Assembly (NCBI GenBank): GCA_045863475.1
Contig: BTUR01000001.1
Location: forward strand, 184,978-248,977
Direction of reading: 5' to 3'
Source of the DNA: Candidatus Campbellbacteria bacterium
Lineage (GTDB): Bacteria > Patescibacteriota > Minisyncoccia > Phycocordibacterales > EsbW-18
Length of the DNA stretch: 64,000 nt
The notes beneath the pieces are model-generated. The model searched no databases and was not told where the DNA came from. It was given only the letters and a program-made list of their open reading frames with translations. Shown one piece after another: positions 4,555-15,168 of this stretch. The translations under genes were made by a program, and so were the position numbers. The stretch's first letter is position 1. The number at the start of each line of letters is the position of its first letter.

Positions 4555-4749
4555 TTTTATTTTCTCCTGCGTTCCCGCAGGTTGAAAACTGATTCGCCCT
4601 GCCGGACACTGTGGTCCGGCAGGGCCGGTAGTGTCCAGTGGTCCCTATAGGGACGTGGAACGTAACGGGAGACACTATACACGAGCACTGTTTTGGATGC
4701 AAGACGCCCGCGACAAGTAGTCGCGGGCAAGAGGGGTATCAACAGGCAT

Positions 4750-4971
4750 TCAGAAGGAGTCGAGCGCCTTGAGCCACCCCTTGGGAAGCTCGTTGGGGTT
4801 GGACATCTGCGCACCGCAGTTCGGGCAGAAGCGCGGGTTCCGGTTGCCGTCTTGGTGACGAATCTGTCCCCCGCAGGAGCTGCACTTGAGGATCATTCCC
4901 TGGTACGGATGATAGTAGTCGGCGACCCACTCCGCGGTCTTGACCTGCGCCTGTTCACCAGCCATGTCCAT
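4750..4971 (-). CDS. small zinc-ribbon protein (CxxC...CxxC)
   Basis: The 73-aa product contains KCSSCGG...RFCPNCGAQM; the gene sits in an insertion island between rplC and rpsJ and has high GC. Confidence 0.45.
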   Translation of the reverse strand: MDMAGEQAQVKTAEWVADYYHPYQGMILKCSSCGGQIRHQDGNRNPRFCPNCGAQMSNPNELPKGWLKALDSF

Positions 4972-5122
4972 CTCCTTTCGGGAATCTACCCGCGACTATA
5001 CGCTGGCGGCAATACGAAGTCAAAGCGAGGCGTCCCTTAGGGACGATTGATGGCACTATTGCCACCGTGCACACATAAGAGTAAGGTGGCGAAAGAGTTG
5101 TTCCAACAAAAGGAGAACGGAC

Positions 5123-5773
5123 ATGCGGAAAGACAGGTTTCTCGATTTTCTCGGTGGAGCTGCGTTTTTCGGAGGGATATTCCTGAGTGCCTGGCACCAC
5201 GCCGCGTACCCTGGCCCTGTCACTTTCTGGTGGGGACTCATGCACGTGCCCTTGGTGGCTCTGTGGGTTTTTGGTCTTCGGAGGCTTTTCCACATCCTGA
5301 TGGGACCAAGTGTGGATGAGCTCGAGGCCGAAGACCGTCAGGCACGGGCAGGGAAATCCACCCCCGCCACGCTTGTGTCGGTCGTCGTTGTCGCGCTGCT
5401 CAGTGCCCCTGCGCTTGCGCAGGAAATCCCGAAGACGGACACTCCGCTGGTTTTCAAGTCAGTCGTGCGCGACGTCAACGTCAGAGAGTTCGTCCTCTCC
5501 CCGGAGGAGGAGGTTCGTTTCTTCAAGAGCAATGTGACACGACTGGAGCGAGAGGTCGTGGTCGCCGTCCTCCAGACGCGCATGAGCATGGAGACCGAAG
5601 AAGACGGGAGTATTGTCGCCCTGCTTCTTCGAGTTAAGACGGAAACCGCCTGTTACGGGTTCTGTTTCGAGCCCGAGGTACTGGAGCCGCCATCCTGCGT
5701 CGTTCCACTGGAGATGCCGAAGGCAACCGCCGCTGTCCCCGCAAGGGACGGCGGTTTTTTCATACAAAAGTAA
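5123..5773 (+). CDS. hypothetical membrane/secreted protein
   Basis: 216-aa ORF with N-terminal hydrophobic segments; terminator hairpin at 5726-5762. Confidence 0.35.
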   Translation: MRKDRFLDFLGGAAFFGGIFLSAWHHAAYPGPVTFWWGLMHVPLVALWVFGLRRLFHILMGPSVDELEAEDRQARAGKSTPATLVSVVVVALLSAPALAQEIPKTDTPLVFKSVVRDVNVREFVLSPEEEVRFFKSNVTRLEREVVVAVLQTRMSMETEEDGSIVALLLRVKTETACYGFCFEPEVLEPPSCVVPLEMPKATAAVPARDGGFFIQK

Positions 5774-5824
5774 AAGCCGCACCGAGAATCTCGGTACGGC
5801 TTCCACAGGAGATGGGAGCAGTGA

Positions 5825-6142
5825 TTAGCCGTACTGGACGGCCTTCTTCAGAAAATCCCGTGGGAAACCCTGCTCACAGAATCGAAGCACCTTCCCGCAA
5901 CTGCGACAAAATCGGGGTAGCCGTTGGACCGAAAACTCTGGAAACTGGTCGCCACAGCCGCCGCACTCGAACGTGCATCCCTTGATCGGGTTGAACTCAA
6001 CCGTGGTGATGTCGCACTCGTGTGCGCCATCCACGACCGTCACCCTTTCCGGTACAACCCCTTCACTCACGCATTCCTCCTGTTTCGAAAGAACAAGCTC
6101 CAAATCTATTTTCGGAGCGGAACTGGTGAAGATACCAAACAT
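5825..6142 (-). CDS. hypothetical Cys-rich (zinc-ribbon-like) protein
   Basis: The 105-aa product contains CGGCGDQF...FCRSCGK, a second zinc-ribbon-like protein in the same island. Confidence 0.4.
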   Translation of the reverse strand: MFGIFTSSAPKIDLELVLSKQEECVSEGVVPERVTVVDGAHECDITTVEFNPIKGCTFECGGCGDQFPEFSVQRLPRFCRSCGKVLRFCEQGFPRDFLKKAVQYG

Positions 6143-6227
6143 TTTTTAATGCGCAAGCGTTTGACACGGTTATACAAAAACTATAGATTGCTCCAAGATT
6201 CAAACGCTCAAGAAAGGAGTCCGCTTC

Positions 6228-6545
6228 ATGATCTTTGGCATCGTAGGCAATAAGGAGCGGGATGGCAGTTTGTTCCTGTATACCTGCTTCGTCGCGCGGA
6301 ACGAGAAGGAGTTCTTCGACCAGCATGCGCAGTACGGAACGGACGGCTTCCAAGTCCTTCGTGTCGAATCCCCGTGTACTTTCCTGGGGAGCGAGGAGGA
6401 GCTGCTCGAGCAACTCTGCAAACACATCGCCGAGAAAGGACCAATGGCCAGTCTGCTGCGTATGGCCTTGAAGGCCGGCGCGAAGGTCGGCTGGGAAGTG
6501 CGAACACAAGATATCGCACACCGCCTGCTCGGAATCGGTAGATAA
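6228..6545 (+). CDS. hypothetical protein
   Basis: 105-aa ORF followed by strong terminator hairpins at 6569-6595 and 6604-6628. Confidence 0.35.
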   Translation: MIFGIVGNKERDGSLFLYTCFVARNEKEFFDQHAQYGTDGFQVLRVESPCTFLGSEEELLEQLCKHIAEKGPMASLLRMALKAGAKVGWEVRTQDIAHRLLGIGR

Positions 6546-6568
6546 CAGGGCGGAAGCCATCTCTATAC

Positions 6569-6628
6569 CGCCGTCTTTCGGGACGGCGGTTTTTCCATAT
6601 GAAAACCCGCCCTTTCGGGTGGGTTTTG
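6569..6628. terminator. tandem/bidirectional rho-independent terminators
   Basis: CCGCCGTCTTTCGGGACGGCGG followed by TTTTT, and AACCCGCCCTTTCGGGTGGGTT followed by a T-run; these serve the + strand ORF and the downstream end of rpsJ. Confidence 0.6.
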
Positions 6629-6786
6629 TTACATCATCCGCGCACCGAAAATCTCATCTTCCGGTTTCATCTCATTTTGAGGAATGTACGGTCACCGACT
6701 CCTCAGTGATATTTTGAGTACGCTGATTTTGGTACGGGATTGATGAAAAATAAAGTCACCCGACCTTGCGGCCGGGCTCCTTATTT

Positions 6787-7255: not shown

Positions 7256-8458
7256 TTACGCAACAATCTTTGTGACGACTCCTGCACCCACTGTCTTGCC
7301 ACCCTCGCGGATAGCGAAACGCTGCTGTGCTTCAAGCGCAATCGGCGCTGTGAGCTTCACTTTGAACGTTACGGTGTCACCCGGCATGACCATCTGAACG
7401 CCCTCAGCGAGTGTTACCTCTCCGGTGACGTCAGTCGTGCGGATGTAGAACTGCGGCTTGTAGCCGGAGACGAACGGCGTGTGGCGTCCGCCTTCATCCT
7501 TCGTGAGGATGAGGACCTCGGCCTCGAATTCCGTGTGCGGCGTAACCGAACCCGGAGCTGCGATGACCTGTCCGCGCGTCACGTCTTCTTTCTTGAGACC
7601 GCGGATGAGGATGCCTGCGTTGTCACCTGCCTGTCCTTCGTTGAGCGACTTGTTGAACATCTCAATGCCGGTAACGGTCGTCTTCTGCGTCGGCGCAAGT
7701 CCGACAACTTCAACGTCCTGACCAACTTTGATGATACCGCGCTCGATGCGGCCCGTTACCACGGTGCCACGTCCTTCAATTGAGAAGATGTCTTCAACCG
7801 GCATGAGGAACGGTTTGTCCGTTTCGCGAACCGGCTCGGTGATGTAGCTGTCGAGCGTGTTGACGAGCTCAAACACCTTCTGTGCCCACTCATCATCTGC
7901 TGACTTCGCTTCAAGCGCCTTAAGGCCTGAACCGCGGACGAACGGCGTCTCTTTGCCGTCGAATCCGTACTTCGTGAGCATTTCGCGAACCTCCTCTTCG
8001 ACGAGGTCGATGAGTTCGGCGTCGGCGACCATGTCACACTTGTTAAGGAAGACGATCATTTTCGGAACACCAACTTGCTTTGCAAGAAGGATGTGTTCAC
8101 GCGTCTGCGGCATCGCGCCGTCCGGAGCTGCAACCACGAGCACTGCGCCGTCCATTTGAGCGGCACCGGTGATCATGTTCTTGATGTAGTCGGCGTGACC
8201 AGGAGCGTCGATGTGCGCGTAGTGGCGGTTCGGCGTCCAGTACTCCGAGTGGTGGAGTGAAATAGTAATACCGCGCGCCTTCTCTTCGGGCGCTTTGTCG
8301 ATGTTGTCGATTGCCTCGACGCGGGCGCCGTATCCCTTGTCCTTGTTGAGGTCCAGGACGTGGAGGATAGCTGCGGTGAGAGTCGTCTTGCCGTGGTCAA
8401 CGTGGCCGATGGTTCCGACGTTGACGTGCGGCTTTGAACGATCAAATTCTGCTGCCAT
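7256..8458 (-). CDS. tuf: elongation factor Tu
   Basis: [22 protein letters not shown] and NKCD GTPase motifs; 400 aa. Confidence 0.95.
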
Positions 8459-8778
8459 ATGTATTAATGCTAAAAATTGCTAAAAAGTGGCTCTCTACTT
8501 TAACCCCTCGAGAAGCGCACACGCTTCCGACAAAAAATACGCTAAGCGCGCATTGTGTAAGCACGGCTCATACTATACGTGTACGCAAGAGGAGTCAATC
8601 CCGTTAGAGCTGTATTTTCAATGAACAGTGGAGAAACTGTGTATAGAAAAACCCTACGTGCCGCTGCGATTCGGATGATGGAATCTCTAACGGGATCAAC
8701 TTTTTCGGCACTTTTTGTGCATTACGCGTGGATAAGCGAAAGCCCCGTCCCGGCGTGCCGGAACGGGGTCTTCAAGAA

Positions 8779-9426
8779 CTACATCATGTCCAGAAAATCG
8801 TACTGTCGGGGAAGCTCGAGGTGATCCGGCACGCGGATGCGTTCGACGGGAACACGGTCCCCCAGTGCATCCAGAATGTGCTGTCCGATGAGAAACATCT
8901 GCGGACACATCTCGCGCGGCTCGTGTCCCGGTCGCAGATAGCATGCGACAATCACATGACTTCTGCGCGCGGACTCAATCATCGCCTCGACGCGCGCAAG
9001 CGATGCTCCGACGCGCAGTGCTGCAATCAGTATCTCTTCGCGCGAAGCGTGACTGCCGAGGTGCCGGTCCTTCCATCCGAAATCAATGACACGCAATTCA
9101 TCACCGGAGAGCTCGCCGTGGAGTACGAACAACAGTACGTTCGTGTTCTCGATAAGCTCATCGCGACGCTGTGACGCGTACATCTTGTTCGCCGCCGCTC
9201 CCCTGCTGTTGCTCTCCAGGAGCATCGCGGATGGCGCCACGATACACATCGACACCATCATGATGCCGCACCAGCGCAACATCGTTGCGTCACTCATGCT
9301 AAACCCCGCAATGAGCGCTCCGAAACTGATGATGCTGAGCATCACGCCTACGAACGACACTCCTGCAAGTACCGCGAGTTTGCTTCTCTGCCACCTGCTT
9401 TTTCGAGCGAGCTCTCCGTAGGTCAT
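8779..9426 (-). CDS. MTYGE-family membrane protein, paralog 1 (2 TM plus cytoplasmic domain)
   Basis: Begins MTYGEL, has two N-terminal TM helices, and shares LFxLxHGxL...VRxIxxxW and C-terminal PLDxF-like motifs with the two neighbouring genes. Confidence 0.55.
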   Translation of the reverse strand: MTYGELARKSRWQRSKLAVLAGVSFVGVMLSIISFGALIAGFSMSDATMLRWCGIMMVSMCIVAPSAMLLESNSRGAAANKMYASQRRDELIENTNVLLFVLHGELSGDELRVIDFGWKDRHLGSHASREEILIAALRVGASLARVEAMIESARRSHVIVACYLRPGHEPREMCPQMFLIGQHILDALGDRVPVERIRVPDHLELPRQYDFLDMM

Positions 9427-9557
9427 CGCACGTCCCTCCGCATGCGCCGTACCTTCGTTCCTTCTCTGTACTCAATGGTCGCACGGGAGGGTTCAAGCGC
9501 AAGTGGAAAACCCCCGCACGCTTTTTGCGTGCGGGGGTCGTGAGGAACGAAGAGCTG

Positions 9558-10178
9558 CTACTCGGAGAGGCCGATGTTGAGGGCCGAGAGCTTCGGCGGC
9601 TCGGGAACCGGGAAGTCGTCGAGGGGGTAGGCCTGTCTTGCGGCCTCGAAAACCCTCTGGCTGATGAAGAACTTACCATCACGAGCATCGATGACGCCAG
9701 CACCGATGGTTTCGAGAAGTCGTCGGTCGAAACTGTCCCTGTCAGACGCGTAAGCCTCGAAAAGCAGTTGGTCAGTCAACGGCATGGTGACCGGTGATGA
9801 GGTTTTGGGCGTCGACGACGCGGGTCCCGTCCAGAGAAGTCTCACGGTTTCCCAGTGGGTCGGGTGCAGTCCCGAATGACTGAGCAGGAAGAATAAATCA
9901 TCGAACTGCTTCTCCCACGCTTCGCGGATGGGACGGAGCACTCGATCTTCCACATGACGTTCGTAGACGAGCGAGCCAACTCCCACCAGACATCCGATCA
10001 GCGCCCCCGCGAGAAGCATCCATGCACCAAAGCCGGCGGTGCTAGCCTTGCCGACGAAAGCGGCTTCACCGTAGAAGATGAAGAAGGATGCAAAGCACAC
10101 GGCAGCGAGAAGCATCCCGCCGTAACCAACAGGAGAACACCAGCGGTCGAAACGCTTCTGCAACTCTCCATACGTCAT
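9558..10178 (-). CDS. MTYGE-family membrane protein, paralog 2
   Basis: MTYGELQKRF..., same architecture; the LFFLLSHSGL...VRLLW motif. Confidence 0.55.
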   Translation of the reverse strand: MTYGELQKRFDRWCSPVGYGGMLLAAVCFASFFIFYGEAAFVGKASTAGFGAWMLLAGALIGCLVGVGSLVYERHVEDRVLRPIREAWEKQFDDLFFLLSHSGLHPTHWETVRLLWTGPASSTPKTSSPVTMPLTDQLLFEAYASDRDSFDRRLLETIGAGVIDARDGKFFISQRVFEAARQAYPLDDFPVPEPPKLSALNIGLSE

Positions 10179-10283
10179 GGGAAATCCTTTCTCTGCCCTC
10201 AGGCAGCGTTATGTTCTGCGGCGACGATATAAGTAAAGCGCGGACGAGTCAAGCTCGTCCGCGCGGTGCAAGGAACACAGGAT

Positions 10284-10895
10284 TCAGGATCCGCAGAGTG
10301 TGTCGAGCTTCTGCCGGGTCTCTTCGACGCTCCGGTCGTCATTGCTGTTCGCTGAAAACTTGTCGAGAGGACACGCCGCCCGAACAACATCCCAGAGGTT
10401 CTCTCCGATGGAGAGTCGGTGGTAGCTCTTCTGCGAGATCTCGAGAAAACCCCTGGCCTGAAGACGGTACAGGTAGCGGAAGAATTGCAACTCACCCTCC
10501 TGAAAGCTGCGGGCCGCCCCCTCGACTTGCTCTTTGCTCCAGAACATCGACACATGTTGCGCCGAATCGGACGTCCAGAGGTGTCTGATGACGCGAACTC
10601 CCTCGGCCTTCAGAGGGCCGTGAGCGAGAAAAAGAAACGTGTCGATATTGTTGATTCGCTGCAACCATGCGGCTCTGATGTCCTCGCGCTCGTTGTACCA
10701 CCGTGCTGTCGAGAAAAAGAGTGCGGTGGCACCTGCGATCAAGAGCGCCAGGACGAGCACGATTTCCCAGGGAACGTCGTACCCCAGCGCAAAACGTGCT
10801 CCTATGCACATGAGCACCAAAATCGTGACGAGTGCGACAACGAAAAACGAATTGCGAAACATCCGGTAATTCTTATTCGCCACTCCGTACGTCAT
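10284..10895 (-). CDS. MTYGE-family membrane protein, paralog 3
   Basis: MTYGVANKNY..., same architecture; the LFLAHGPLKAEGVRVIRHLW motif. Confidence 0.55.
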   Translation of the reverse strand: MTYGVANKNYRMFRNSFFVVALVTILVLMCIGARFALGYDVPWEIVLVLALLIAGATALFFSTARWYNEREDIRAAWLQRINNIDTFLFLAHGPLKAEGVRVIRHLWTSDSAQHVSMFWSKEQVEGAARSFQEGELQFFRYLYRLQARGFLEISQKSYHRLSIGENLWDVVRAACPLDKFSANSNDDRSVEETRQKLDTLCGS

Positions 10896-10977
10896 GACGC
10901 CCTCCCTTTCTGAAAATCCTGCGGTTATTATCTTCTGCCACCATACGTCAAACCGCCCGCACTGTACAGTGCGGGCG

Positions 10978-11010
10978 GTTTCTGTTCCCTGTCGTCTGTT
11001 CCCTGTTCCC
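10978..11010. repeat. GGGAACAGGGAAC motif cluster (reverse complement on + strand) directly 3' of a TAG stop
   Basis: TGTTCCCTG at 10983-10991 and GTTCCCTGTTCCC at 10998-11010. In gene orientation the stop reads TAG AGCCAGGGAACAGGGAACAG. Confidence 0.5.
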
Positions 11011-11015
11011 TGGCT

Positions 11016-11711
11016 CTAGTCGTGCTTCATCTCGTTGCCCAAGTGCTCGAGGTAGCGAGCAGCTGCACTTTGTCCTCCCAAACCAAATGAGAGACCGAAT
11101 GCAAGTGCAAGTGCGATGACAACACCTGTGAAGAGCGTCTGCAAGAATGCAACGCCGATACCGAGGTGTGAGAGCGCAACCAAGAGTGCGAAGACCAAGA
11201 TTGACCAGCGTGAGAGTGCACCGAGGAAACCTGCCATCTTGATGTGCGTTGCCTTCGCCGATGCGATGACGAGCTTGCGGACTGCCTCTGCAATCACCAC
11301 CGCAACCAGCATGATGAGCACTGCGACGATGACCTGCGGCAAGTAGCCCAAGACCACGTTGCTCAAGAAGTCGGTCACCTGTGTGAGGTTGACGATTTCA
11401 AGTGCGGCAATCAAGAAGACTACGATAATGAACCAGCGAACGAGCTCGCCGATGAATTTGCCTGAGTTAAGCGAGAAACCGGCGCGTGCGAGCGTCTGTT
11501 CCATGCCTGCGCCCCGAAGCGCCGAGTCGAGCTTCATCGTCTTGAGAACCTGGTCCACAGCACGTGCCAAAAGCGACGCGATGATCCAGCCGACGATGAA
11601 CACGATGAGGGCAACGATGAATTTCGGCAAAAACGCGATAACTCCCGCCCATACAGACGCGAGTGATCCCGCTACCGTCATACCCGTTGTTCCAAGAATT
11701 GTTCCTTGCAT
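11016..11711 (-). CDS. polytopic membrane protein with repeated 'conserved TM helix'-like segments (MscS-associated type)
   Basis: 231 aa with about 5 TM helices; repeated motifs KFIVALIVFIVGWIIASLLARAVD and KFIGELVRWFIIVVFLIAALEIV. Confidence 0.5.
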   Translation of the reverse strand: MQGTILGTTGMTVAGSLASVWAGVIAFLPKFIVALIVFIVGWIIASLLARAVDQVLKTMKLDSALRGAGMEQTLARAGFSLNSGKFIGELVRWFIIVVFLIAALEIVNLTQVTDFLSNVVLGYLPQVIVAVLIMLVAVVIAEAVRKLVIASAKATHIKMAGFLGALSRWSILVFALLVALSHLGIGVAFLQTLFTGVVIALALAFGLSFGLGGQSAAARYLEHLGNEMKHD

Positions 11712-12128: not shown

Positions 12129-12686
12129 CTACAATCCGAGTTTGTTGACGATGTTGCGGTGCGGATAGTCAAACACATCGCGCACGAGTCGGTCGTTCAT
12201 ATCCATGCGGTATCTGAAGTCCTTTGTGGAAAGCGTAACGTAGCGAATTTCCGTACCGCAGTCAGACTCAATACCTGCAATCGCGCGCTTGAGCGCCCGC
12301 TCGTTGATTCGGTCCCCGACGATGAGAATGTCTGTACGCGTGTCAAAGTCACCGTTCATGAAAATACCCGATGCCGATATAAGTTTTATGGTTCCTGTAC
12401 GCGCAACGCGCTCTTCAATATCAACATCCACAAGCATGTTGCCCAATAAAAGTTCACGCAACGAAACCATGTGAGGAAACGAAGCATCGAGTGTCCAGCC
12501 CTTAGCTTTTTTCTTCGCAAATCCGGCAGATTTCAGCCACGAGAGCGGACCCGTCAGTGTGCGTGCAGGAACGTGGAGGCGTTCAGAAAGTGTTTTCGGC
12601 ATAAAGACGCCGTCCGGGTGAAATAGAAAAAAACGCATCAATCGCACGAGCGTCGCATCCCCAAACAGTTTTGCCAGCAAATCCAT
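12129..12686 (-). CDS. hypothetical protein with a possible N-terminal winged-helix
   Basis: 185-aa ORF; N-terminus LVRLMRFFLFHPDGVFMPKTLSERLHVPARTL resembles wHTH regulators; C-terminal domain unknown. Confidence 0.4.
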   Translation of the reverse strand: MDLLAKLFGDATLVRLMRFFLFHPDGVFMPKTLSERLHVPARTLTGPLSWLKSAGFAKKKAKGWTLDASFPHMVSLRELLLGNMLVDVDIEERVARTGTIKLISASGIFMNGDFDTRTDILIVGDRINERALKRAIAGIESDCGTEIRYVTLSTKDFRYRMDMNDRLVRDVFDYPHRNIVNKLGL

Positions 12687-12878: not shown

Positions 12879-15077
12879 TCAGGACAGTGCGGCTATTTGT
12901 TTTTGAAGCTCTTCGATGAGTTGCATGATGAGCGCGATGAGCGCCGTTTTAATCTCTTCAATCATGCGCGCCCGGTCTTCCGGCGAAAGCGCACTGATAT
13001 CGGTCACGTCCAAAGGACCTGTCACTTCCTCCGCTCGACGGCTACTACCACCTCCTCCACCTCCACCACCCCCGTCATCCTCCTCTTCTTCCTCTTCATC
13101 GGGTGTGAAATTAACGATAAGCGCTTGAGAACCGTAGTCGGATTGGTCGGTGTACCAACCATTCTCGTCATACGCACGCAGATAGATTGTGTACGAACCT
13201 TCTGCAAGTCCGGAAAGTGAGCATATGAACGCTTCGTTTGTTTCGTTGTATGCACCATCACCCGCATCACACGCGGTCCATGTGCCGTCGGGGTTGCTGC
13301 TGAATGCATATTCAACCCCCGCAATATCTGAAGCTGAGTTGGATGCATCCGCAGTTCCCGTCAAATCGTAGGAGGTGATGTCAGTTTCTGCTGAAGCGAC
13401 TGTTGGAGCAACTGTGTGCGGGAAGTTAAACACGATAAATGTTGAGCCCGCGTCCGTTCTGCCGCTAACATCAGCTGCGTATGCAACCATGGCTATGTCG
13501 GGACGACCGTCGTTGTTGAGATCACCTGCGGTCATGCCTTGTGCAAAGAATGAGCCGGAGATGCCCTCCCAGCGCGCCGCGTATGCGTCCGCATCGGTGA
13601 TGGTGATGTCATTGCCGGTTCCTGTGGTGCTTGCAAACGAATCATTGTCGATGTAGTACACCGCGCCGAGTGATTCGTTTGTCTCACCCTCAGGAAATCG
13701 TCCGGAGATAAAGAAGTCGTCAACGCCGTCGCGATCCATGTCGGCAACTGTCAGACTCGTGCCGAGGTGCTGCGTGAGGGACGCGCCAATGAAGCGGAGG
13801 TTGTAGTTCGTCGTGGGTGATGATGTGCCAAGCTCCACCACGTTGTCCGTGCCAACGTAATCATCAATGAGGTCATTGTTAATGAGGTACGTCCAGCCCG
13901 TACCGCGAACAGTGTTGCCGCCGTGGTCGGCGCCATTGGCGCCGACCAGAATATCCGTTGCACCATCATCGTCAAAATCACCCGCAGCGATGCTGCCGCC
14001 GAATACCGCGTGGCGCGAAATCATATCGTAACGAGTCGAAACAGTCGACGACGCATTAAGATCAACAATATTGCCGACACCAGCGTATGCGTCGAGTAGT
14101 TCATTGCGAATGAAATACACAGAACCACCATCGGCTTCAACATTGTCGCGGCCGTATGCAGGAAGCATGAGATCGAGTGTGTCGTTGCCGTCAAAATCTT
14201 CAATGATAAGCGGCCCGTTACCGAAAAGTTCCGTTGATTCACTGCCATCGAGCCGGATGTTGAACAGTGTTGTGGATGCGAGATCCACCGTGTTGCCGGT
14301 GCCAACATAGTCATCCAAGAGTGAGTCGTAGAAAATATAAATCGAACCGGAGTACGTGCGACCGTTGTTGTCCGCATCTCGTGCACCAATGAGCAAATCA
14401 TTGCCACCAACGCCGTCGAGATCGGCAACTGCCAGACCCTGCGTAAACGCGAGCATGTCGTTTGCGGCGGCACCTTCAAACCGGATGGTATAGCTTGAGG
14501 ATGCCGACATGTCCACGGTATTACCGGTACCAGTGAGGCCTGAAAAAATGCTGCTGTCGATAAGATAGAGCGCTCCTGCTGACGAGCGTCCGTTGGGATC
14601 AACACCGTATCCGGCAACAAGAAGATCCGGTGCGTCGTCGCCGTCGACGTCCGCAACTTTTGCGCCGCTGATTGAGAAGTAGTCGTCTGCCGCAGCACCG
14701 TCAAAACGAATGTTGTAGGAGGTTGATGCGAAAAGATCGATGGTGTTACCTGTCCCTGTGTAATCGTCCAGAAGTGAATCAAAAAGCACGTGGAGTGAGC
14801 CGGAATTCGACCGACCATTATTGTCGTCCCACCACGACTGGAGCAATATGTCGTTGCGTCCATTACCATCAAGGTCGGCAATGACCGGGTCGCTATAGCC
14901 GGTCCAGTCACCTTCTGTTGCACCGTCAATACGAATGTTCCATGCGGTTGCATCAGAGGTGATGTGCGTTGCTGCGGCAAATGCGGAGAGCGGTGCGACG
15001 AGTGTTGAGGCAGTAAAGACGACACCGGTAATGAGCGCGATCGGTTTGCAGATCACGGAATATTTTTTTAGCATATG
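12879..15077 (-). CDS. large secreted FG-GAP/VCBS-repeat protein with an acidic Gly-rich C-terminal region
   Basis: N-terminal signal/TM; at least seven FG-GAP-like repeats (DLDGNGRNDILL, DVDGDDAPDLLVAGYG, DLDGVGGNDLLIGA, DFDDDGATDILVGANG, DMDRDGVDDFFISG, DLNNDGRPDIAMVAY); EEEEEEDDGGGGGGGGG then an amphipathic C-terminal helix. Confidence 0.7.
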   Translation of the reverse strand, partial: HMLKKYSVICKPIALITGVVFTASTLVAPLSAFAAATHITSDATAWNIRIDGATEGDWTGYSDPVIADLDGNGRNDILLQSWWDDNNGRSNSGSLHVLFDSLLDDYTGTGNTIDLFASTSYNIRFDGAAADDYFSISGAKVADVDGDDAPDLLVAGYGVDPNGRSSAGALYLIDSSIFSGLTGTGNTVDMSASSSYTIRFEGAAANDMLAFTQGLAVADLDGVGGNDLLIGARDADNNGRTYSGSIYIFYDSLLDDYVGTGNTVDLASTTLFNIRLDGSESTELFGNGPLIIEDFDGNDTLDLMLPAYGRDNVEADGGSVYFIRNELLDAYAGVGNIVDLNASSTVSTRYDMISRHAVFGGSIAAGDFDDDGATDILVGANGADHGGNTVRGTGWTYLINNDLIDDYVGTDNVVELGTSSPTTNYNLRFIGASLTQHLGTSLTVADMDRDGVDDFFISGRFPEGETNESLGAVYYIDNDSFASTTGTGNDITITDADAYAARWEGISGSFFAQGMTAGDLNNDGRPDIAMVAYAADVSGRTDAGSTFIVFNFPHTVAPTVASAETDITSYDLTGTADASNSASDIAGVEYAFSSNPDGTWTACDAGDGAYNETNEAFICSLSGLAEGSYTIYLRAYDENGWYTDQSDYGSQALIVNFTPDEEEEEEDDGGGGGGGGGSSRRAEEVTGPLDVTDISALSPEDRARMIEEIKTALIALIMQLIEELQKQIAALS

Positions 15078-15168
15078 CAGACCATCATACCCTGTTTCTC
15101 CAACATCAAAAAACGCCCCCACAGGGGCGTTTTTCTTAGAAGTTGCGGCTGCGACCTAAAGTGACGCT

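Follow-up and report, generated by a model that had tools for sequence, protein, structure and literature searches.

The subject of this study is a tandem array of three genes, here called paralogs A, B, and C, in Candidatus Campbellbacteria bacterium AMXMBFR44, a member of the candidate phyla radiation (CPR; Patescibacteria). We analysed a stretch of 64,000 nucleotides of contig BTUR01000001.1 (assembly GCA_045863475.1, positions 184,978 to 248,977), which we call the window and from whose first letter all positions are counted. On its minus strand the gene order is mscS-like gene, C, B, A, tuf, and rpsJ, and A, B, and C are all labelled 'hypothetical' in the source record. An original prediction, made from the sequence alone, had described three adjacent co-directional genes with MTYG(E/V) starts immediately upstream of tuf; the open reading frames (ORFs) and the position of tuf directly downstream of the array bore this out (Table 1). 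It had also proposed a rapidly diverging triplication of an immunity, antitoxin, or receptor kind. Our analysis makes it very probable that the proteins represent a new CPR family, which combines a transmembrane (TM) hairpin with a winged-helix (wH) domain, occupies a hot spot among core genes, has repeatedly swapped its modules, and persists as old alleles under constraint.

Table 1. Features of the array and its flanks in the window
Feature	Position	Strand	Evidence and remarks
mscS-like TM-repeat gene, conserved left flank of the hot spot	11016-11711	-	Pfam PF05552, 5.8e-17
Terminator of the mscS-like gene, upstream border of the array	10950-10981	-	inverted repeat; perfect 16+16 nt hairpin, then T-run
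Paralog C	10284-10895	-	ORF, 203 aa, start MTYGV
Terminator hairpin 3' of C	10238-10264	-	GC-rich, T-run
Promoter-like site for B, TTGACT-17-TATCGT	10252-10224	-	overlaps the C terminator hairpin
Paralog B	9558-10178	-	ORF, 206 aa, start MTYGE; tail motif YPLDDFPVP
Replaceable wH cassette of B (about codons 95-182)	9635-9894	-	DNA alignment, blastn limits, and sliding-window identity against L004
Terminator hairpin 3' of B	9510-9538	-	12-nt perfect arms, then TTTT
Paralog A	8779-9426	-	ORF, 215 aa, start MTYGE; degenerate tail motif VPVERIRVP
Terminator hairpin 3' of A	8743-8768	-	GC-rich, T-run
tuf (EF-Tu), conserved right flank of the hot spot	7256-8458	-	ORF; tblastn synteny; 98.5% nt identity to L005

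Organization of the array

Among all six-frame ORFs of the window, MTYG occurs three times, each time at the start of A, B, or C. A Shine-Dalgarno-like sequence lies ahead of each gene and a terminator hairpin behind it; thus, the genes look like three separate transcription units. In a DNA alignment, the hairpin of B is kept in the related contig L004 with G-U-compatible changes.

The paralogs are distant from one another (BLASTP E-values of 2e-7 for A and C, 4e-5 for B and C, and 0.004 for A and B), and the shared motif LFxLxHGxL...VRxIxxxW is present as had been described. The C-terminal PLDxF, said to be common to all three, was found in B (YPLDDF) and C (CPLDKF), but is degenerate in A (VPVERI). 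The array had also been credited with a markedly higher GC content than tuf, which was not the case: the values are 0.577 (A), 0.585 (B), and 0.559 (C) against 0.574 for tuf, and those at third codon positions (GC3) are 0.69, 0.68, and 0.71 against 0.69. As GC3 is native, recent horizontal transfer from a distant donor was rejected.

A small family of CPR proteins

The family had not been recognized in the original prediction, and we found no match to it in any library tried: Pfam, NCBIfam, PADLOC, PHROGs, and a sequence-profile search of the PDB gave noise from TM segments only. A Pfam scan of all 17 members at E<=5 returned TM-region noise and no MarR, ArsR, or PadR hidden Markov model (HMM), and NCBIfam contained no match. 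In PADLOC-DB there was no catalogued defence protein, only TM-segment matches to Csx27/tm_4 (E-values of 0.01-0.06). No described immunity family was matched in Pfam, NCBIfam, or the PDB profile search. Three of the 17 members matched PHROG holins with E-values of 0.017-0.046.

A word-indexed search of 5.8 billion proteins yielded the proteins themselves and three close variants, P0004-P0006; one later search of this type, dominated by TM-word candidates, returned 5 proteins. When a profile was run exhaustively with HMMER against 1.84 billion cluster representatives, 13 of them matched at E<=1e-3. One of these, P0014, was a spurious coiled-coil repeat protein and was dropped, leaving about 12 true clusters with lengths of 192-214 aa. 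All source-labelled members came from CPR assemblies related to Campbellbacteria. Scans of JGI metagenomes found no relatives, and a literature search found nothing relevant.

We defined the family by an MT(Y/F) start, a two-TM hairpin, the motifs AW...F.D..FLL, LW, and IG...A...YPL.dF, and a length of 187-219 aa. More fully, the members share an MT(Y/F)(G/K/R)E start followed by two TM helices, a junction R..AW(E/K)..F.D..FLL just past the second TM helix, a stretch ..L(S/T)..E..V(L/I)..LW.. whose LW pair lies in helix 1 of the wH domain, and a tail l.IG..v...A...YPL.dF..P. Paralogs A, B, and C matched the family HMM with E-values of 1e-57 to 1e-61, and A has all of the defining features apart from its degenerate tail. 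The motifs are also carried by the independent members P0007-P0013 and P0015-P0017. The closest relatives of C (P0007, P0008, and the protein of locus L006) are 28-31% identical to it. A, B, and C are thus members of a small, undescribed protein family, although the fold itself is common.

Predicted structure and membrane topology

Hydropathy, the positive-inside rule, and AlphaFold agree on two N-terminal TM helices followed by a cytoplasmic domain of about 125-140 aa, as the original prediction had it. With an alignment of 17 sequences, AlphaFold gave a model of C (m09997461c466) with a predicted local distance difference test score (pLDDT) of 90.6 and a predicted template modelling score of 0.76; the three paralogs alone gave a pLDDT of 49.9, which was unusable. 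The TM hairpin of C spans about residues 17-36 and 43-65. In the model, a helix at 3-36 (TM1) is followed by a helix at 43-81 (TM2 and a juxtamembrane helix), a short helix at 84-90, and then the wH domain, with helix 1 at 97-108, strand 1 at 119-120, helix 2 at 121-129, helix 3 at 135-147, a wing at 151-163 formed by the beta-hairpin 151-154/160-163, and helix 4 at 165-174; the tail helix is less confident. The junction motif of C is IRAAWLQRINNIDTFLFL, and its tail motif is CPLDKF. Paralogs B and A have the same architecture.

The predicted order of elements in the cytoplasmic domain fits a canonical winged helix (helix 1, strand 1, helix 2, helix 3, wing). Almost all of the top 50 Foldseek matches of C in the PDB were wH proteins, with probabilities of up to 0.97, and included the MarR-type regulators CouR and HpaR, TubR, IclR, F-93 of SSV1, and the wH domains of Cdc6 and Rio2; matches in a viral structure library were of the same wH kind. 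The model shares the order helix 1-strand 1-helix 2-helix 3-strand 2-strand 3 with CouR (6c28), HpaR (7el2), IclR (1mkm), TubR (4asn), and SSV1 F-93 (1tbx).

The net charge of the N-terminus is +1 to +4 in 15 of the 17 members and 0 or -2 in the other two; the inter-TM loop (6-17 residues) is neutral or acidic, and an Arg/Lys-rich stretch follows the second TM helix. This positive-inside pattern supports a topology with both termini inside, which would place the wH domain in the cytoplasm. A receptor, one of the functions suggested earlier, is therefore unlikely.

The wH domains are not basic (pI 4.4-8.2). Helix 3, the presumed recognition helix, has a net charge of -2 to +3 and is largely hydrophobic or aromatic (for example, ELQFFRYLYRLQ, LWRVVVRML, and EFYQCLLAGVLYG), and the wings often carry a net negative charge. 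This makes sequence-specific DNA binding of the classical kind doubtful.

The conserved positions are M1, T2, Y3, W77, L87-88, L95, L106-W107, I163-G164, A171, P176-L177, and F180, which map to the N-terminus, the junction, helix 1, the last strand of the wing, and the tail; the membrane hairpin and the surface of the wH domain are highly variable among the members. The model of C has isolated bridge residues at positions 2 and 181. The conserved residues may form a constant interface that clamps the wH domain onto the hairpin. What is unusual in the family is that the hairpin comes first and a non-basic wH domain last, and that junctions for exchange are built in.

Mosaic alleles and exchange of modules

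Contigs L004 and L005 come from sample SRR13959604. Between L004 and the window, we found 3 mismatches in ~377 nt over the C-B spacer and codons 1-92 of B; the entire wH domain of B (the cassette in Table 1) was then unalignable over ~260-270 nt, and from YPLDDF through the terminator the two sequences were again ~96-99% identical. The strain variant of B encoded on L004, P0006, thus shares codons 1-92 and the last ~25 codons with B. The 3' end of C in L004 was only 66% identical to the window at the nucleotide level, and in L005 paralog A was 80% identical, compared with 98.5% for the adjoining tuf. Two alleles of A were found, P0004 (80% aa identity, L005) and P0005 (64%, L001). In all, there are at least 5 breakpoints of identity inside 2.4 kb.

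In a second lineage, P0017 consists of the membrane half of P0010 (89% aa identity) and the wH half of P0016 (85%); the junction in the DNA lies inside AWEKKFDDVEFL, and P0017 is present in two independent samples. The DNA breakpoints fall at AWEK(Q/K)F and YPL(D/E). When 20 members were split at the junction, the two halves of several pairs differed widely in identity (Table 2). These sequences make it very probable that homologous recombination, acting at the conserved motifs of the junction and the tail, has exchanged the membrane and wH modules time and again.

Table 2. Amino acid identity of family members on either side of the junction
Pair	N-terminal half	C-terminal half
B and P0006	100%	37%
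P0010 and P0017	89%	36%
P0016 and P0017	32%	85%
L006 protein and P0007	28%	58%
P0011 and P0015	28%	56%
P0010 and P0013	62%	29%

To speak of a triplication is misleading, since the closest relative of each paralog is found in another genome and not next to it. The same holds for the wH domains; therefore, the array seems to collect old types and not to result from recent triplication.

Several sources of such variation were considered and rejected. No variable-region repeat of a diversity-generating retroelement was present in 8400-11100 or elsewhere in the window, and the alleles differ by complete replacement with insertions and deletions, not by equal-length, adenine-specific substitutions. 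In the case of an integron or shufflon, the hairpins 3' of each gene proved to be short, GC-rich terminators with T-runs. There were no silent donor cassettes elsewhere in the window and no recombinase among the neighbours scanned, the scan covering part of the window.

Divergence and selection

Synonymous sites are saturated between A, B, and C, so that dN/dS (omega) between the paralogs is meaningless; thus, we used allele pairs. The background divergence of the SRR13959604 strain from the window is a dS of 0.058 in tuf and ~0.045 in the N-terminal half of B. Between A and P0004, dS was 0.675 and dN 0.115 (omega 0.17), and dS was thus about 12 times that of the tuf gene adjoining it on the same contig. 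Within allele classes, omega of the individual modules was 0.08-0.28, constraint being weakest in the N-terminal tail and in the C-terminal half of the wH domain. Judged by dN/dS, these values do not bear out the rapid divergence and diversifying selection that had been proposed. The combination of low omega and high dS suggests that the diversity consists of long-lived or imported alleles and recombination, not of accelerated point substitution. The alleles are thus very probably much older than the surrounding genome and evolve under purifying selection.

The mscS-tuf hot spot in related genomes

Using the mscS-like protein as the synteny anchor, we retrieved 69 loci among the species representatives of GTDB. 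In the closest of these, the mscS-like gene and tuf enclose a gap of variable content, and related genomes have in it one to three copies of the family detected by the HMM, of differing types (Table 3). In the case of L006, the flanks are close to those of the window (94% identity for the mscS-like product, 96% for the tuf product, and 80-88% at the nucleotide level), whereas the gap holds one gene in 767 bp compared with three in 2354 bp, with zero DNA similarity between them, and the single protein is only ~28% identical to C.

Table 3. Gene content of the mscS-tuf gap
Locus	Content
Window	C, B, A (3 copies)
L001	D (MTYREM, 199 aa), A ortholog (64% aa identity), E (MHYDEF, 211 aa); 3 copies
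L006	one gene (MTYQTAK, 201 aa)
L008	P0015 and a decayed second copy (famC HMM, E 0.014)
L009	one gene (MTYRML, 187 aa)
L081	P0012 (one copy)
L010	four tandem two-TM genes of similar build
L013	one different gene

The exceptional variability that had been claimed for the locus was thus confirmed by copies of different types, mosaic alleles, and divergence about 12 times the background. With copy number and type both variable and no match to a known family, the genes do not behave as one-to-one orthologs of a housekeeping family. Members outside the mscS-tuf synteny adjoin housekeeping genes (pilB-like/tsaE, MazG, mraZ, and LigT).

In L008 (positions 1260-1697 and 785-1531), the second copy is decayed and frameshifted and lies downstream of P0015. 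The start codon of P0015 itself is probably a TTG 15 codons upstream of the called ATG, which would give the family-typical MTFGEL(ERRL). The four genes in L010 (3930-7396; 196, 207, 238, and 238 aa, the last two copies being identical) have in common a junction resembling AWWEK and the tail WSPED..VPSPSPA. Homology to the family was not demonstrable for them (family HMM E 0.19, hhalign probability 1.3%), and they may belong to a very remote branch of it or to a family that is analogous.

Other features of the neighbourhood

The mscS-like gene (231 aa) consists of PF05552 TM-helix repeats only, without the cytoplasmic beta domain of MscS. A short repeat, GGGAACAG, occurs three times directly 3' of its stop codon (10981-11010). 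Upstream of the gene, a 185-aa protein (12129-12686), syntenic in L001 and L081, looks by eye like a winged helix-turn-helix protein at its N-terminus; it had no Pfam match and a sub-threshold ArsR-like match in NCBIfam (E 0.12).

In the spacer between A and tuf, the window has an insertion of ~101 bp (8590-8700) that is missing from the near-identical strain contig L005. Its ends form a 16-nt inverted repeat, CTCTAACGGGAT(T/C)(G/A)AC, and a long hairpin is predicted for it (-41.4 kcal/mol, z = -4.07). The insertion, of which the window has a single copy, contains the TTGACT box of a promoter-like site of tuf and is matched by no Rfam family. Possible explanations are an element resembling a miniature inverted-repeat transposable element and a leader structure.

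Two further regions vary between genomes. Between rpsJ and rplC (4555-6786), three ORFs without Pfam or NCBIfam matches interrupt the S10 operon: 6063-6560 (minus strand), 5825-6142 (minus strand, with CxxC...CxxC), and 5123-5773 (plus strand). In L006, L008, L009, and L013 this stretch is not homologous to that of the window; it forms a second variable island among the ribosomal genes. A region encoding an FG-GAP repeat surface protein is replaced between close genomes, with no DNA similarity between 2.3 kb in the window (12879-15122) and about 6.2 kb in L006 (2876-9055).

Possible functions

If the diversity of the locus is maintained by selection, the proteins presumably recognize something that is itself variable. 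We tentatively favour, as one possibility among several, a polymorphic recognition repertoire under balancing or frequency-dependent selection, most probably with a stand-alone conflict function, which we rank first because the variable domain is intracellular and close to the membrane and the hairpin is holin-like. At the inner face of the membrane, the wH domain would recognize a protein or nucleic acid that derives from an invader and is variable, while the hairpin, which resembles that of class II holins, would either anchor the wH domain at the site of entry or perturb the membrane as an effector; phage or other invading DNA would be excluded or would meet with an abortive response. In a more specific form, which we regard as rather doubtful, the proteins would be a previously undescribed type of stand-alone CPR immune receptor, in which a wH sensor fused to the hairpin detects incoming phage or foreign DNA, or its pilot proteins. 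Detection at the inner face of the membrane would then block entry or collapse the membrane, and the repertoire would be modular, its halves being reshuffled at the built-in junctions in a core-genome hot spot.

TM hairpins are also found in Cam1, Csx28, SLATT proteins, two-TM CBASS effectors, and class II holins. The predicted two-helix hairpin with both termini inside, joined to a cytoplasmic domain that may act as a sensor or regulator, is shared with Cam1, Csx28, SLATT, and the CBASS effectors; the family differs from them in having no signal-generating system (CRISPR or cyclase) associated with it and nothing above TM noise in PADLOC. In the case of phage holins, there are only the weak PHROG matches, and no endolysin or phage genes adjoin the family.

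Several observations weigh against the favoured explanation. PADLOC contained no defence-family match. Pattern scans of IMG/VR for close relatives found none, and tblastn with paralog C gave no matches in phage and plasmid records. At the ~12 distinct loci inspected, we found no adjoining toxin, effector, secretion, defence, integrase, phage, or mobile-element gene, and the neighbours (tuf, the mscS-like gene, mraZ, MazG, tsaE, and the pilB-like gene) are housekeeping genes. The hot spot holds mostly the family and similarly built genes, unlike the mixed systems of typical defence islands. Omega was nowhere near or above 1, save in one short segment that was saturated or had low counts. The structural matches have weak Foldseek E-values (0.03-0.3). 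The contigs that carry the mosaic alleles are short and metagenomic; an assembly chimera would, however, have to be double and in frame, which is unlikely.

The proteins could instead be membrane-bound one-component regulators, in which the hairpin senses a cue from the membrane or envelope, the wH domain binds DNA right at the membrane, and each paralog has its own small regulon. The canonical order of the wH elements, the best structural matches (DNA-binding regulators of the MarR, IclR, PadR, and Fur types), the scarcity of regulators in CPR genomes, and the putative promoter and the terminator of each gene would agree with this, as would the opening 'L(S/T)..E..V(I/L)..LW', which we take to resemble helix 1 of the ArsR and MarR regulators. 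We nevertheless consider such a role improbable. The charge of the wH domain, the hydrophobic or aromatic helix 3, and the often negative wings speak against it, and the MarR, ArsR, and PadR HMMs were not matched even at E=5. Compared with MarR, IclR, and PadR regulators, the family has no match at the sequence level, shows only the weak structural E-values given above, and is tethered by an N-terminal hairpin; the dimerization helices of MarR are missing. Where flanks are 94-96% identical, a regulator is normally conserved one-to-one, whereas here copy number and type have changed wholly, and every swap of a whole domain would rewire the regulon. In ToxR/CadC, BcrR of Enterococcus, and ArnR of Sulfolobus, a single polypeptide likewise combines TM helices with a domain of the helix-turn-helix type, which they keep at the cytoplasmic face of the membrane. 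Those proteins, however, begin with the DNA-binding domain and continue with the TM segment(s) and often an external sensor domain, while our family has the reverse order and almost no external part. To our knowledge, none of them occurs as a recombining, multi-allelic array.

A fast-evolving housekeeping adaptor, in which a tethered, protein-binding wH domain recruits a cytoplasmic partner under weak constraint and in a local recombination hot spot of an organism whose proteins generally evolve fast, with no selection for diversity, also seems to us a rather unlikely explanation. It would suit the neighbourhood of core and ribosomal-protein genes, the native GC3, the purifying selection throughout, and the non-basic surface of the wH domain, which suggests protein binding. 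At least one two-TM gene of the family or its build lies in the gap of most genomes checked (L013 being the exception), and the nearby rpsJ-rplC gap and the FG-GAP gene are likewise variable. On the other hand, drift alone would not lead us to expect the excess of dS over the adjoining tuf within one contig, the breakpoints clustered in the array, the recurrence of module shuffling in a second lineage, or the retention of several deeply divergent types side by side.

Orphan immunity proteins against toxins delivered by competitors, kept as a specificity array, are a still less likely alternative. The EsaG/DUF600 and TsaI proteins of Staphylococcus aureus, orphan cdiI modules, and the acquired interbacterial defence islands of Bacteroidales consist of tandem, divergent paralogs that change in copy number from strain to strain and recombine between copies. 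The present family is likewise tandem, divergent, variable in copy number, and recombining between types; old allele classes under purifying selection would fit specificity classes, and a membrane anchor would suit the neutralization of toxins that use the membrane as entry route or site of action. However, genes for toxins, polymorphic toxins, or secretion systems adjoin none of the ~12 loci, and no immunity family was matched. The proteins differ from those of the known arrays in fold and sequence family, and their locus lies among core genes, with no mobility genes. Moreover, only one narrow clade has the family, whereas immunity genes as a rule move between taxa together with toxins, and we know of no such toxin system in Campbellbacteria. 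The immunity or antitoxin function originally proposed thus received no direct support.

A self- or kin-specificity locus, in which matching modules inside one cell or between cells decide compatibility, is very improbable: agr groups and the comCD and comQXP pherotypes show the same population pattern (flanks that are nearly identical, a middle that cannot be aligned, and old alleles subject to purifying selection), but their gene content is entirely different, and here the variable wH domain is cytoplasmic, the extracellular loop has only 6-17 residues, and no peptide-signal gene, kinase, or processing enzyme adjoins the array.

Conclusion

CPR bacteria have tiny genomes and a mostly unknown biology, and little is known of their dealings with phages or competitors. 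The family described here is a confidently folded database orphan that uses a common fold in an unusual way, as a non-basic, exchangeable module placed C-terminal to a hairpin. Its population signature consists of conserved recombination junctions, ancient alleles, and turnover of copy number within a neighbourhood of ribosomal genes. If the tentatively favoured conflict function is true, the family would represent a new minimal sensor architecture for bacterial immunity and a natural case of domain swapping by means of built-in 'Lego' junctions; should the proteins be regulators, they would be a new class of membrane-tethered transcription factor. In either case, proteins of about 200 aa offer a small and concrete target for experiments.

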